Shown: positions 58,845 to 64,000, counted from the stretch's first letter. The stretch is 64,000 nt of DNA from Polaromonas sp. (GCA_028291985.1 JAQGNE010000061.1:9713-73712); one strand, 5' to 3'. Notes: generated by a model not told the origin, from the letters alone. Translations and numbers: made by a program.

Positions 58845-59759
58845 ATGGCCGAAGCTACCGTCGTATTTGCCGACCTCAATGGAAGTACCGGCGTTTTTGA
58901 ATTGCTCGGCAATGCGAAGGCGACGCAGGCCATCACCCGGCTGACAGGATGGATGGGCCGGGTCTGCACCCTGAACAATGGTCAGGTTGTTAAAAACCTG
59001 GGTGACGGCGTGCTGATGGTGTTTACCGAAAACACCGATGCCATCGACGCGGTGATGGAAATGCAGCGGGTCCACACCGAGCGTATCAAGACTTGGCCTG
59101 AGTCATTTAAGATGCGCCTGCAAATCGGGCTTTCACGCGGCGAGGTGATAGAGCAGGGCGGTGACTTTTTTGGCGATGCGGTAAACGTCGCCGCGCGTCT
59201 TTCTGATCTTTCAGGTCCAGACCAGATTCTGGGCACCGAGACAGTCATCCATGAACTCGAACCCAACGGGCCAGTGCGTTTCAGAAGCCTTGGTAGCATG
59301 GACATCAGGGGCCGTAACGAGGCCTGCTTGGTGTACCGCGTTGAATGGCAGAACGAGTTTGGCAGCGAATTTTTCACACTGCCTGCCAGCCTGAATGCGA
59401 TGTATCCGATGAAGACGACATCTAACACTGCTGCCATCCGCCTGTCATGGCTGGATGTCAACGCGACCTTCACGCCAGCGCAACTGCCCATTCATATCGG
59501 ACGCGATACAGAAACCCAGTTTGTCATCAATGATCCGCGCGTGTCGCGCCTTCATGCCAAGATATCGTGGCGCGCTGGGAAGTATCACCTGGAAGATGTC
59601 AGCAGCTACGGCACCTGGCTTCGTTTTGCTGAAAACCAGGCCGTAATCAACCTCAGGCGCCAGGAATGTCCGCTGCTGGTCAAAGGCGAGATGGCCATGG
59701 GCGCACCGTTTGAGGACTTCACCGTGCCGACTGTAGTGTTCACTTTTCAGGCGACTTGA
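58845..59759 (+). CDS. Class III adenylate cyclase domain fused to a C-terminal FHA domain
   Basis: VFADL, VKNLGDGV, DFFGDAVNVAARL; IGRD...SRLHAKI...LEDVSSYGT. Confidence 0.9.
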   Translation: MAEATVVFADLNGSTGVFELLGNAKATQAITRLTGWMGRVCTLNNGQVVKNLGDGVLMVFTENTDAIDAVMEMQRVHTERIKTWPESFKMRLQIGLSRGEVIEQGGDFFGDAVNVAARLSDLSGPDQILGTETVIHELEPNGPVRFRSLGSMDIRGRNEACLVYRVEWQNEFGSEFFTLPASLNAMYPMKTTSNTAAIRLSWLDVNATFTPAQLPIHIGRDTETQFVINDPRVSRLHAKISWRAGKYHLEDVSSYGTWLRFAENQAVINLRRQECPLLVKGEMAMGAPFEDFTVPTVVFTFQAT

Positions 59760-60048: not shown

Positions 60049-62223
60049 TCAGGCTGCTATGCCTTCAACGTCAAGCCTTTCCCAATGGCGATGCAGCGCC
60101 ACGGCTGCAATAAAGTCCTGAGACACCTGCCCGTCGATCACTTTTCGGGAATCGGCAATCACCATGCCGGCTGCTGGTGTTGCCACCACTTCCAGGTTTT
60201 TGCCCAGCGCAAAACCAAGCGCTGCAAACAGCTCCACACCCTCGTTGATGGCGCATATCGGCTTGCAATGCTTGTAGGCTTCCATGACAAAGTGCATGGC
60301 ACTGCCCATGCCGCGCAGGGCTTCAATATGCGGCGCACCACCGGGAACGATGACCGCGTCGAACATCACCGAAGGCATGGTGCAAAACGTATGGTCCACT
60401 GGCATCTGGCGGCCGCCGGCGGTGCTCACGCTGCCGAGCTGGTGACTGACAGTCTTGCACACGGCCCCCGCACTGGCCAGGTCCAGCATCAGGCGTTTGA
60501 CACTGGCGGGTTCGACCCCGTCAGCGACCAGCACGGCTACCCGGCGTGTTTTCACATGGGTTCCAGGCTTGCTCGCCATGCGCAGGCTGGGCTCTTCGTC
60601 CAGCTTGTTGGCGATGCGGTGATCGCGAAAGCCCAGACGACCCGCTGCGGCCTTGGGGTCGGGTGTACCAATGCCCAAAGGCGCTGCCACACGCGAGGCC
60701 AGCTTCATGTCGACATGTGCCAGGTTGTCAACGACACGCTGGCGAATGTTCACCTGCTCCACACGCGACAACTCAAATCGGAAGGCTGCGACGATATGGT
60801 CTTTTTCAGCGTTGCTCTGGCTGTTCCAAAACAGCGTGGCCTGCGAAAAGTGATCATCAAACGACGGACTTCTACCGCGACTTTTTGAGGAGTCGGTCAC
60901 CTCCGGCGACTCCTTGAAGCCCTGCGCAGCGCCGTCAATCCGAAACTCCGAGCCATTGCCCAGGGTGTTTGGCTCATACGCCACACGACCTTTCAGGATA
61001 GTCTGGCGATGGGTTCCATCGCGCTGGAAATTGTGCATCGGACACACGCTGCGGTTAATAGGAATCTCGTGAAAGTTGGCCCCGCCCAATCGCGAGCGCT
61101 GGGTTTCGCTGTACGCGAAAAGCCGGCCCTGCAGCAAAGGGTCATTTGAGAAATCGATACCAGGCACCAAATGGCCCGGATTGAAGGCAATCTGCTCCGT
61201 CTCGGCAAAAAAGTTGTCCGGGTTCCGGTTCAGGGTCAGCCTGCCAATCAACTGCACAGGTACCTGTGACTCGGGAATGAGTTTGGTCGGATCCAAAATA
61301 TCGAAGCCGAGCTCTCCCTCTTTTCCGGCGTCGATGATCTGAACGCCCAACTCCCACTCAGGAAAGTGTCCGCTCTCGATAGCTTCCCATAAATCACGCC
61401 GATGAAAATCAGGGTCCTTACCAGCAATCTTCTGGGCCTCATCCCAGGCCAGTGCGTGTACGCCCAGCTTTGGTTTCCAGTGAAACTTCACAAAGTGCGC
61501 ATCCCCGCCCGCGTTGATGAATTTGAAGGCGTGAACCCCAAAACCCTCCATCATGCGAAAGCTTCGCGGAATTGCGCGATCGGACATCGTCCACATCAGC
61601 ATGTGGGTCGACTCCGGCATCAACGATGCAAAGTCCCAAAAGGTGTCGTGCCCGGTGCTAGCCTGCGGCATGCCGCAGTTCGGCTCAGGTTTGAGCGCAT
61701 GCATCAGGTCTGGAAACTTGATCGCATCCTGAACGAAAAACACCGGCATGCTGCAGCCGACAAGGTCGTAGTTGCCTTCCTGGGTATAAAACTTGACCGC
61801 AAAGCCGCGCGCATCCCTTACGGTGTCGGCCGAGCCGGCCTGACCGGTCGTCGTCGAGAACCTGACGAATACTGGTGTTTCAACACCGGGATCCTGCAGA
61901 AAACCTGCTGTGGTGTAGGGCGCCATCGACTTGTAGGGCTTGAAGAAACCGTGAGCGCCAGAGCCTCTTGCGTAAACCGCGCGTTCAGGAATGCGTTCGT
62001 GGGCAAAGTGGGCAAGCTTTTCCCTCAGTATGAAGTCTTCCATCAGGGTAGGTCCGCGCGGGCCTGCCTTCAGGGAATTGTGGTTGTCGGTAATCTGCAA
62101 GCCCTGATTGGTCGTCAACAGGTTGCTGGACTCTTCCCGGCTCGACTCCAGCTGATGGAGTTTGTTTTTTGCGCTGTCGTTGTTTTTGGCACTGCCAGCG
62201 ACCTTGCGCTTGGTTGTTAGCAT
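60049..62223 (-). CDS. katE: Large-subunit (HPII/KatE-type) catalase homologue with C-terminal DJ-1-like domain; distal catalytic residues substituted
   Basis: [38 protein letters not shown]-terminal [11 protein letters not shown]; but VYARG replaces VHARG and VGCS replaces VGNN. Confidence 0.92.
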
Positions 62224-62294: not shown

Positions 62295-62561
62295 TTATTG
62301 TTCGGGCGTGCCCTGCAGTAGCCGGGCTAGCACCAGCACCGCCATGAGCGACAGGGCGCTTAAAAAGACCCAGCCAATCATGTCTTGCGCCAGACTGGCT
62401 ACTGCATCAGGCAAAAGGAGTGAGAAAGCCAGCGACGCTGCGGTGGCCATCAGCAACACCAGAAATAACTCCAGGTAGTCACTGCGTGGTCCGGTGTCGG
62501 GCTGACAGAAATCGCGGTCGTCACATGCCGGTTCCGACATGCCCTCCACCGCAGATTTCAT
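62295..62561 (-). CDS. Small two-TM hypothetical protein
   Basis: YLELFLVLLMATAASLAFSLLLP...IGWVFLSALSLMAVLVLARLL; start uncertain. Confidence 0.55.
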   Translation of the reverse strand: MKSAVEGMSEPACDDRDFCQPDTGPRSDYLELFLVLLMATAASLAFSLLLPDAVASLAQDMIGWVFLSALSLMAVLVLARLLQGTPEQ

Positions 62562-62797
62562 GGTGTTGCCCGATACTGAAATTGGAGTTGACGAAATCCC
62601 GAGCCGTAATCGGGCGAATGCACCTAGGGTAGAGCCTGCTGGCCGAAAGTGGGTGGCAAAAACGCCGGCACGACTGTAAGGTCCTGCTGTACTTGATGTA
62701 AGACATTGCTTACTGCTGTCGAGCGCCAGCAGGTGTTGATCTCTTTGTATGGGATACCAGCGCAAGACTGGTGGCCGATACTGGGTGAAGGTGCGGC

Positions 62798-63757
62798 CTA
62801 GCCAGCGCCCAAGCCTGTCCGCAACTGCCTTTGGTATTCCGCCTTTTTCATCTGGAGATAAGCGTTTCGATCTACTTCATGGAGCTGCAGTTTGTAGCGC
62901 TCAGTCGCGTCAAACCAGTGTTCGAAGCGGGCTTCCGGCACTTGCAACGGCGGTTTATTCGGTGACGCAAGGTAGGCTTCAATAGCCAGGTAATAACGCA
63001 TGGTGTTGCGCTCGACCGCGCCGCGCATTCCCCCCACATAAGGCGATTTTTTGTCGGCGCCGTTGACTGTGAAGCCAACTTTGCCGTTACCAACCGTGGC
63101 CAGGTATCCCTGCATGGCCAATCGTCCAGCAACGCCGTAGCCATAGGAATAGCGCAAATGCATGAAAGTCTTACCGCCTGCCACGGGTATTGCCTCGAAC
63201 TCTATGCGGTAATCGCTTGTGCCAACCGGGCCTTGCGCCGCATTCAGTTGGATAGCCAGATAATCCGGCGCTGAAGCGGCGAGCTTCATGGCAAATTCAA
63301 GCGCAAAGGTGTCGTCAATGGCTTGCGGCGTTTTCTTGCCGATATTGACCCGAAGCATTGACGGGGTCGCCTGCGCGCCAGCCTTGCAGTACTTGGTGTT
63401 GATATGCAAGATCATGACCTCGCACCATTGCACTGGGCTTTTGAAGGCAACTGCTACGGTTTCGAACGGCGCGTTCAGCACGGCGTAAGCGTCGCCGCTG
63501 ACTGTCGATCGGCTCTCGGCAGACTCCAGAAACAAAGGCCGGCTGAAATCATTTTTGGCAAGTCGATCTTTCAGTTCGGCATACCGAAGCTGCAGCGCCC
63601 CGGAAGCGGCCGACGACGGGGCGGGAGAGGGCAGTTGTGCGGAGGCCAGCGAATGGGTGCAAGCCAAAGCCAATGCGCCTGATGCTTTCACGACCGCCAG
63701 CGCAAAGCGTCCGTATCGCCTAGCCACAGTTGCTTGCCTGTCGTGCCCCCATCGCAT
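62798..63757 (-). CDS. Secreted hypothetical protein (start uncertain)
   Basis: Signal-like ALALACTHSLASA-QLP, Pro/Ser linker, globular domain with WCEVMILHINTKYC, GPVGTSDYRI, GAVERNTMRYYLAIEAYL. Confidence 0.75.
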   Translation of the reverse strand: MRWGHDRQATVARRYGRFALAVVKASGALALACTHSLASAQLPSPAPSSAASGALQLRYAELKDRLAKNDFSRPLFLESAESRSTVSGDAYAVLNAPFETVAVAFKSPVQWCEVMILHINTKYCKAGAQATPSMLRVNIGKKTPQAIDDTFALEFAMKLAASAPDYLAIQLNAAQGPVGTSDYRIEFEAIPVAGGKTFMHLRYSYGYGVAGRLAMQGYLATVGNGKVGFTVNGADKKSPYVGGMRGAVERNTMRYYLAIEAYLASPNKPPLQVPEARFEHWFDATERYKLQLHEVDRNAYLQMKKAEYQRQLRTGLGAG

Positions 63758-64000
63758 TGCTGTTGGACTGATGACGAAATCATGGATGTGCATGCAGCCA
63801 GTTTGACAGCTGAAGCGGTCTTTCAATTCACCAATTCCGGACAAGCTCTGCCGTCCTACAGCAATACAGGCCATCAAGCGTGCTGTAGGCTCACTGCCTG
63901 TAACTGCCAGCAGCTAGCGATTCAAGCAACTACTGGACTTTTGCACGCGCGGGCCGCGTCACGCCTTTTTTAGCGGGTGCGGCCGGTGCAACACCTTGTG

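Follow-up and report, generated by a model that had tools for sequence, protein, structure and literature searches.

Monofunctional catalases possess a textbook invariant active site, composed of a distal histidine, a distal asparagine and a proximal tyrosine. Comamonadaceae catalases have been described as functional enzymes (PMC10308234), and Polaromonas enzymes serve as examples of typical clade 2 catalases in a review of catalase evolution (PMC3523812). Full-text literature searches returned no description of natural catalases without the distal His, or of a "catalase pseudoenzyme". Here we analyze a gene at the katE locus of Polaromonas sp., located in a stretch of 64,000 nucleotides (GCA_028291985.1, JAQGNE010000061.1:9713-73712; hereafter, the window), which encodes a homologue of large-subunit (KatE/HPII-type) catalases in which the distal His is replaced by Tyr and the distal Asn by Cys. 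Judging from comparative sequence analysis, and with a probability that we put at roughly 0.7, the product of this gene would be a heme-binding pseudo-catalase, kept for a role other than that of a catalase.

The gene was put forward by a previous examination of the window (hereafter, the sequence-only reading) as an uninterrupted open reading frame (ORF) of 724 amino acids (aa), and we find it free of stops throughout. Its product shows the domain order of E. coli HPII, with a core, a wrapping region and an Hsp31-like C-terminal domain. The Pfam Catalase model (PF00199) matches with 582 bits over 382 of its 383 positions (1-382), followed by Catalase-rel (PF06628, 82 bits) and the C-terminal extra domain Catalase_C (PF18011, 65 bits, residues 558-717), a DJ-1_PfpI match being also obtained. 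Residues 9-717 align to E. coli HPII structures (phmmer E ~1e-239, ~55-60% identity), and the NCBIfam "catalase HPII" equivalog model scores 1025.7 bits, under its cut-off of 1102. The protein thus combines the core, the Catalase-rel region, the Hsp31/DJ-1-like domain, the proximal Tyr/Arg and the propionate arginines that define clade 2 large-subunit catalases, and departs from that definition at the distal His (Tyr84) and the distal Asn (Cys157). Its length, its complete large-catalase architecture and its missing distal His exclude the small catalase-related hemoprotein type (allene oxide synthase or mini-catalase).

Direct reading of the codons and alignment to HPII (Table 1) bear out the central observation of the sequence-only reading, namely a Tyr in place of the catalytic distal His, together with the Cys-Ser dipeptide it had placed at Asn201/Asn202 and the Thr it had placed at the channel Val169. 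The 73-residue spacing between Tyr84 and Cys157, said to equal that between His128 and Asn201, is also recovered in the alignment. Two further residues differ from HPII, with Ala at Asp118 and Asn at His392, the latter being the partner of the His-Tyr cross-link in HPII. The proximal ligand region and the heme-contacting arginines are kept, as had been claimed: Tyr371, Arg367, Arg81, Arg121 and Arg378 align to HPII Y415, R411, R125, R165 and R422, and both Ser123 (HPII Ser167) and the Asp181 equivalent are retained.

These substitutions are not an assembly error, since the same coding sequence recurs in an independent assembly, the JGI metagenome contig L090 (2636 bp), where it differs at three nucleotides and one amino acid (T206S) and retains Tyr84, Cys157, Ser158 and Thr125. 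Tyr also occupies the His position in the four nearest of the 120 closest database proteins (79-88% identity), each of which comes from a different metagenome, and these four show Asn-Asn and Ile or Leu where the window strain has Cys-Ser and Thr; in the nearest relative (88% identity) these residues are Asn-Asn and Ile. Cys157, Ser158 and Thr125 are therefore restricted to this strain and contig L090. Tyrosine itself defines a Polaromonas clade of five members with 100% support (the Tyr clade), and it has been kept through synonymous turnover, because its codon is TAC in the window strain and TAT in the other four members. At columns conserved at 95% or above, the private changes of this strain are N201C, N202S, S234T, S414A and D417E, and five additional changes at such columns, all conservative, are common to this strain and some members of the Tyr clade.

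Replacement of the distal His extends well beyond the Tyr clade. On a subfamily tree of 194 sequences, covering Polaromonas, Variovorax, Ramlibacter, Xylophilus and Caenimonas, with Bacteroidota sequences and the paralogue from the same genome as outgroups, 28 homologues have no His at this position, carrying instead Tyr (16), Asn (9), Phe (1), Cys (1) or Ser (1). Explaining these losses takes 15 changes on the tree; well-supported branches make at least 11 (FastTree) to 13 (IQ-TREE) of them unavoidable. The His column accumulates 18 parsimony changes, compared with a median of 2 for core columns and 0-1 for each of the Val127, Ala129, Ser167, Arg411 and Tyr415 columns. Only Tyr and Asn are seen among the seven amino acids that lie one nucleotide step from His, and the Phe, Cys and Ser found at this position lie one further step from Tyr or Asn. 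An even draw of 151 genomes from the genus yielded 84 scorable orthologues, with 69 His, 10 Asn, 4 Tyr and 1 Ser (18% without His), and no strong orthologue match across the 151 genomes contains an internal stop. Loss of the distal His is, on this evidence, recurrent across this Comamonadaceae subfamily, with at least 13-15 independent events. A single origin of the His-less copies, followed by spread, was also considered and was rejected by the approximately unbiased test (difference in log-likelihood 1645, p 2e-5).

Outside this subfamily His-less variants are rare, though present, since three of the 60 cluster representatives (50% identity) covering the motif are without His and one of the three is the subfamily's own cluster. 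The other two (P0151 and P0267) belong to other clades; one is a 689-aa protein with Pro at the His position, and the other a 483-aa protein with Phe at that position and Ser-Asn at the Asn pair. Within the subfamily, the cultured type strain Polaromonas jejuensis NBRC 106434 (L010, NZ_BCYO01000025.1) harbors a variant with His replaced by Asn and Asp118 by Ala, together with a small-subunit catalase.

Comparison of the 165 His-bearing and 28 His-less rows of the alignment, in HPII numbering, reveals which residues change with His loss and which do not. In the 28 His-less rows no change is seen at R125, R165, S167, D181, R260, H275, D405, R411, Y415 or R422. In turn, D118, T168, V169, N201, N202, F207, V221, H392, S414, T418 and S421 are near-invariant in the His-bearing rows and variable in the His-less ones. 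Asp118, invariant as long as His is present, becomes Gly, Ala or Ser in seven of the 15 His-less origins, and never Glu; Asn201 is replaced by Ser in five origins, in addition to the Cys of the window strain; and Val169 varies in nine of the 15 origins, compared with 4% of His-bearing rows. His392, conserved in 163 of the 165 His-bearing rows, is Asn in nine of the 28 His-less rows, corresponding to five origins. Thr418 turns to Ala in seven origins and Phe207 to Tyr in four, and the strongest co-varying site is Val221, which becomes Leu or Ile with His loss in 12 of the 15 origins, versus 11.5% of His-bearing rows. When 11 phylogenetically independent His/non-His pairs are compared, pocket changes are essentially confined to the His-less side (counts for His-less and His-bearing members, respectively: Asp118 5.4/0, Val169 5.8/0, Thr168 5.2/0.1, Asn201 3.9/0), and control columns stay flat. 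The Tyr clade departs from columns conserved at 90% or above at eight positions only, seven of them in the pocket or the channel, and the list of convergent changes includes no compensating new His in the pocket. In HPII, His392, Ser414 and Gln419 are connected with the His-Tyr cross-link and with heme d, two features that require turnover, and relaxation of these residues would fit a protein without turnover that keeps heme b. Across the subfamily, inactivation appears to have proceeded always via distal substitutions that spare heme binding, and never via loss of heme ligands or stops.

We estimated the ratio (omega) of nonsynonymous (dN) to synonymous (dS) substitution rates by maximum likelihood under the GY94 codon model. 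Given the saturation of dS, only the comparison with four equally divergent His-bearing sets of similar depth carries weight, and by that comparison the Tyr clade (omega 0.051 overall) falls within the range of the His-bearing sets (0.046-0.069). The same holds for the catalase core, which is the most constrained part of the protein (0.026 in the Tyr clade versus 0.022-0.037 in the His-bearing sets). Omega is 0.049 for the C-terminal domain in the Tyr clade, and 0.038 for the core in an independent Asn clade (L010, L017, L020). The sole unsaturated pair of the Tyr clade (L086/L088, dS 0.66) has an omega of 0.079, and a His-bearing pair (L009/L012, dS 0.675) one of 0.071. Loss of His in the Tyr clade is old, because synonymous sites are saturated (dS > 2) in most pairs, while dN reaches only 0.05-0.15. 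These estimates exclude random decay for the Tyr clade. The sequence-only reading had inferred repurposing, rather than decay, from a cluster of distal substitutions, and the part of this argument that concerns decay stands, upheld by omega, by the invariant heme residues and by departures from the family consensus that keep to the heme pocket and channel. The cluster itself has to be taken apart, since the changes of Asn to Cys, Asn to Ser and Val to Thr are private and only that of His to Tyr is old and shared. Its proposal that homologues carrying both the Tyr and the Gly-Cys-Ser motifs might form a clade under purifying selection holds in the same partial manner, for the former (omega 0.051) and not for the latter, which is confined to this strain.

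The genome from which the window derives (3.58 Mb, 97% complete) encodes a canonical large catalase on a different contig (C46), as well as a KatG on a third (C24), which answers in the affirmative the question, raised by the sequence-only reading, of a second canonical catalase. The C46 enzyme is 54% identical to the window protein and displays canonical VHARG, GNN and RFSTVAG motifs. Its locus (L001, G000:C46:34386-36458) lies in an open frame of ~910 aa, with an Ala/Ser/Pro-rich N-terminal extension of ~200 residues before the catalase core, and its orthologues in related genomes occupy open frames of 810-1130 aa. A second catalase is present in each of nine other genomes with a His-less copy that were examined first; eight of them encode a canonical large enzyme and the ninth a small-type one of ~500 aa. 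In 12 of 30 His-bearing genomes, this gene is the only strong catalase.

We propose that catalysis is affected in the window protein, whose distal acid-base His has given way to Tyr and which, in this strain, also has Cys for the distal Asn and Thr for the channel Val. With these residues replaced, the normal catalase cycle, where one H2O2 gives rise to compound I and another reduces it, would not be expected to run. Turnover by the window protein would be very unlikely, since the HPII H128N variant is inactive (PMC9687031) and the window protein has lost both His and Asn. Removal of H2O2 in this genome is covered by the C46 large catalase and KatG. The protein most likely still folds into a tetramer and binds heme, probably as unmodified heme b, because constraint on the heme ligand, the arginines holding the heme, the channel Asp and the whole beta-barrel core equals that seen in active relatives. 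Inactivation restricted to the distal side, combined with constraint on the core, suggests that a folded, heme-loaded protein is what selection keeps, and that selection would act on something other than H2O2 dismutation. Two candidate roles may be considered. The C-terminal domain, derived from Hsp31, might exert the stress-protective, chaperone-like function reported for large catalases; alternatively, the remodelled heme pocket might have acquired a ligand-binding or redox function, at which the convergent replacements hint. The bis-Tyr or Cys-influenced heme and the heme store or sensor suggested by the sequence-only reading are conjectural. Its further suggestion of a core serving solely as scaffold for the DJ-1-like domain would fit poorly, because the core is the most constrained region.

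Redundancy counts in favor of a pseudo-catalase kept for a non-catalase role: in the genus sample, another monofunctional catalase is present in 12 of 15 His-less genomes and in 28 of 68 His-bearing ones (one-sided Fisher test, p 0.0066). Several points weigh against this reading. The association just given ignores phylogenetic non-independence and has exceptions. Of the three His-less genomes without another monofunctional catalase, two have KatG, and in the third (G149, only 89% complete) no other catalase was detected. Absolute omega is unreliable where dS exceeds 2, as it does in most Tyr-clade pairs (NG86). Some His-less lineages evolve faster, as seen in a Ramlibacter pair (omega 0.18) and in Xylophilus (L069/L071, omega 0.36), so not every His loss need share one fate. 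A chaperone role of the C-terminal domain alone would be expected to let the core relax, yet the core stays constrained. Lastly, the recurring replacements (Asn201 to Ser, Asp118 to Gly or Ala, His392 to Asn, Phe to Tyr) could signal adaptation to a new chemistry and not simple loss.

This last point leads to a tentative alternative, to which we assign a low probability, namely neofunctionalisation of the protein into a heme enzyme or sensor. A Tyr or Asn lying above the heme, smaller side chains at Asp118, Asn201 and Thr168 and an altered channel would mark a pocket rebuilt for a different substrate or ligand. Peroxidase- or oxidase-type chemistry, or the binding of an organic hydroperoxide, sulfide or nitric oxide, would be examples, and in this strain the Cys next to the Tyr would bring in thiol chemistry or allow a Tyr-Cys cross-link. 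Such an origin would account for a core as constrained as that of active enzymes, with Asp181 and the heme contacts invariant in His-less rows, and for convergent replacements across lineages that start from His with Tyr or Asn only. The Tyr-clade departures (seven of eight in the pocket) and the strain's private changes at conserved columns, mostly around the heme, point the same way, and catalase-phenol oxidases, represented among the Protein Data Bank (PDB) matches of the window protein (E 1e-175), illustrate that the fold supports other chemistry. However, no acid-base residue has been gained in the pocket, the His position still drifts in some lineages (Tyr to Phe, Asn to Ser, and Cys), and the heterogeneous replacements of Val169 look like relaxation. 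Identical replacements could moreover come from packing constraints alone, and Cys157 is private to one strain, so conservation says nothing on its importance. In its most specific form, which we consider doubtful, His-less large catalases might constitute a recurrently evolved and unrecognised class of heme proteins in Comamonadaceae with a rebuilt pocket, where in the window strain Tyr84 and Cys157 would face each other over the heme, with a possible Tyr-Cys cross-link or a thiol redox/H2O2-sensing site.

Strong purifying selection, as in active catalases, and preservation of the channel and heme-binding residues could also be expected of a still working catalase or peroxidase, in which Tyr, Asn or another residue had replaced the function of the distal His. 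This is made highly improbable by the inactivity of HPII H128N, by the additional loss of the distal Asn in this strain, by the relaxation of catalysis-dependent residues (Asp118, Thr168, Val169, Asn201 and His392) only after His loss, and by the preferential presence of another catalase alongside His-less copies. We give hardly any credence to a decaying pseudogene or an assembly artefact, with recent, neutral or erroneous substitutions and an ORF open by chance. The confinement of Cys157, Ser158 and Thr125 to this strain and the redundancy of catalases in its genome would be in line with it, but the same residues appear in the independent assembly, the Tyr is common to a clade with saturated dS, dN of 0.05-0.15 and omega of 0.05, no strong match in 151 genomes has an internal stop and the heme-binding residues are invariant.

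The locus surrounding the gene is summarized in Table 1. The flanking genes are common to the Tyr clade and to His-bearing Polaromonas loci, so the gene represents the orthologous katE locus and not an extra copy; the origin of the Tyr copy as an extra paralogue was ruled out on the same grounds. Downstream, the cyclase-FHA gene is syntenic in His-bearing and His-less Polaromonas loci. Whether or not the Polaromonas katE copy has the His, tblastn finds the product of the upstream neighbour (about 260-360 or 320-400 aa) encoded ahead of it, with 55-73% identity. The small ORF lying between this neighbour and katE probably encodes a membrane protein, judging by eye from its hydrophobic stretches; a gene of 85-95 aa is called directly upstream of the catalase in three other loci (L085, L086 and L088), contig L090 encodes it at 99% identity, and tblastn gave no match to it in the remaining loci compared. 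Both upstream genes could be functional partners of the catalase. Neither these upstream neighbours, devoid of Pfam domains, nor the rest of the contig offer a functional clue; elsewhere on the contig, an AsmA-like gene, a NAD(P)HX-dehydratase-like gene and a histidine phosphatase can be named by eye.

Table 1. Features of the katE locus in the window, with positions counted from its first nucleotide and active-site equivalents in HPII numbering.
Feature	Positions	Strand	Basis
Large-subunit (KatE/HPII-type) catalase homologue, 724 aa, without distal His and Asn	60049..62223	-	ORF, Pfam/NCBIfam matches, HPII alignment
Catalase core domain, residues 37-422 (PF00199)	60958..62115	-	Pfam
Hsp31/DJ-1-like C-terminal domain, residues 558-717	60073..60552	-	Pfam, NCBIfam
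Ala74, at Asp118 of the FDHERIPER motif	62002..62004	-	Alignment
Tyr84 (TAC), at catalytic distal His128	61972..61974	-	Codon read directly, HPII alignment
Thr125 (ACG), at main-channel Val169	61849..61851	-	Codon, HPII alignment
Cys157 (TGC, 61755-61753) and Ser158 (AGC, 61752-61750), at distal Asn201/Asn202	61750..61755	-	Codons, HPII alignment
Val221 equivalent, alignment column Q177, motif HA[V/L]KPEP	61693..61695	-	Alignment
Asn348, at His392	61180..61182	-	Alignment
Arg367...Tyr371, proximal heme ligand Tyr and partner Arg, retained	61111..61125	-	Invariant in all 194 rows
Cys657 (KPICAINEG), at nucleophile-elbow position of the C-terminal domain	60253..60255	-	
Small ORF, ~95 aa, hydrophobic stretches, no Pfam match	62295..62582	-	Between katE and upstream neighbour
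Upstream neighbour, no Pfam match, conserved	62798..63877	-	tblastn
Nucleotide cyclase fused to FHA domain, convergent, downstream of katE	58845..59759	+	Pfam

The C-terminal Hsp31/DJ-1-like domain presents a feature of its own in Cys657, located at the nucleophile-elbow position. This residue is kept in 185 of 193 subfamily rows, His-bearing and His-less alike, and the position is occupied by Gly, Leu, Ile, Ala or Ser in HPII, in the C46 paralogue and in nearly all other large-catalase clade representatives. Positions 2-123 of the NCBIfam PfpI model match residues 562-682 of the window protein, with scores of 36 bits for TIGR01382 (cut-off 139) and 20 bits for TIGR01383 (cut-off 131). Enzymatic activity of this domain appears uncertain, because the partner catalytic residues of DJ-1/PfpI/Hsp31 proteins are missing: Cys657 is followed by Ala, and not His, and the Glu18 equivalent looks by eye like Ser.

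If the window protein and its His-less relatives are indeed pseudo-catalases, the subfamily would provide a natural replicated experiment on the worth of a catalase scaffold without catalase activity, bearing both on the chaperone activity proposed as a second function for large catalases and on the origin of pseudoenzymes from redundant paralogues. It would also have practical implications for annotation, since the His-less genes are all labelled "catalase", and metabolic or ecological inference would take them for part of the H2O2 defence. The availability of an Asn variant in the cultured P. jejuensis NBRC 106434 makes the question directly testable.

The described systems nearest to the window protein include the His-bearing KatE orthologues of Polaromonas, Variovorax and Ramlibacter, which have equal length and 62-78% identity, conserve Cys657 and, in Polaromonas, share the flanking genes. 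They differ in keeping, almost without exception, Asp118, His128, Thr168, Val169, Asn201, Asn202, Phe207, His392 and Ser421. Catalases with a C-terminal domain derived from Hsp31 have been studied for a second function, and in Neurospora crassa CAT-3 and other large-subunit catalases this domain shows chaperone/unfoldase activity (Hansberg laboratory; PMC9137513, PMC10135305). The domain architecture of CAT-3-type catalases is the same, and a documented non-catalatic activity could outlive catalysis; unlike the predicted state of the window protein, however, CAT-3-type proteins are active catalases, and a C-terminal role alone leaves the constraint on the core unexplained. Coral allene oxide synthase and the Scytalidium catalase-phenol oxidase demonstrate that a catalase fold with Tyr-ligated heme can serve reactions beyond H2O2 dismutation. 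Both retain the distal His, and no sequence feature ties the window protein specifically to either of them; allene oxide synthase, in addition, is a small catalase-core domain with no C-terminal domain, unlike the window protein. With respect to HPII itself, the window protein differs by the replacement of His128 by Tyr, Asn201 by Cys and His392 by Asn. The engineered distal variants of HPII include H128N, H128A and N201A/H, and we know of no engineered His128 to Tyr variant. The best-scoring PDB chain (1ggj_A) has Ala at Asn201 in the alignment. In contrast to these engineered variants, the substitutions of the window protein are natural, and its His loss is old, under purifying selection and recurrent.

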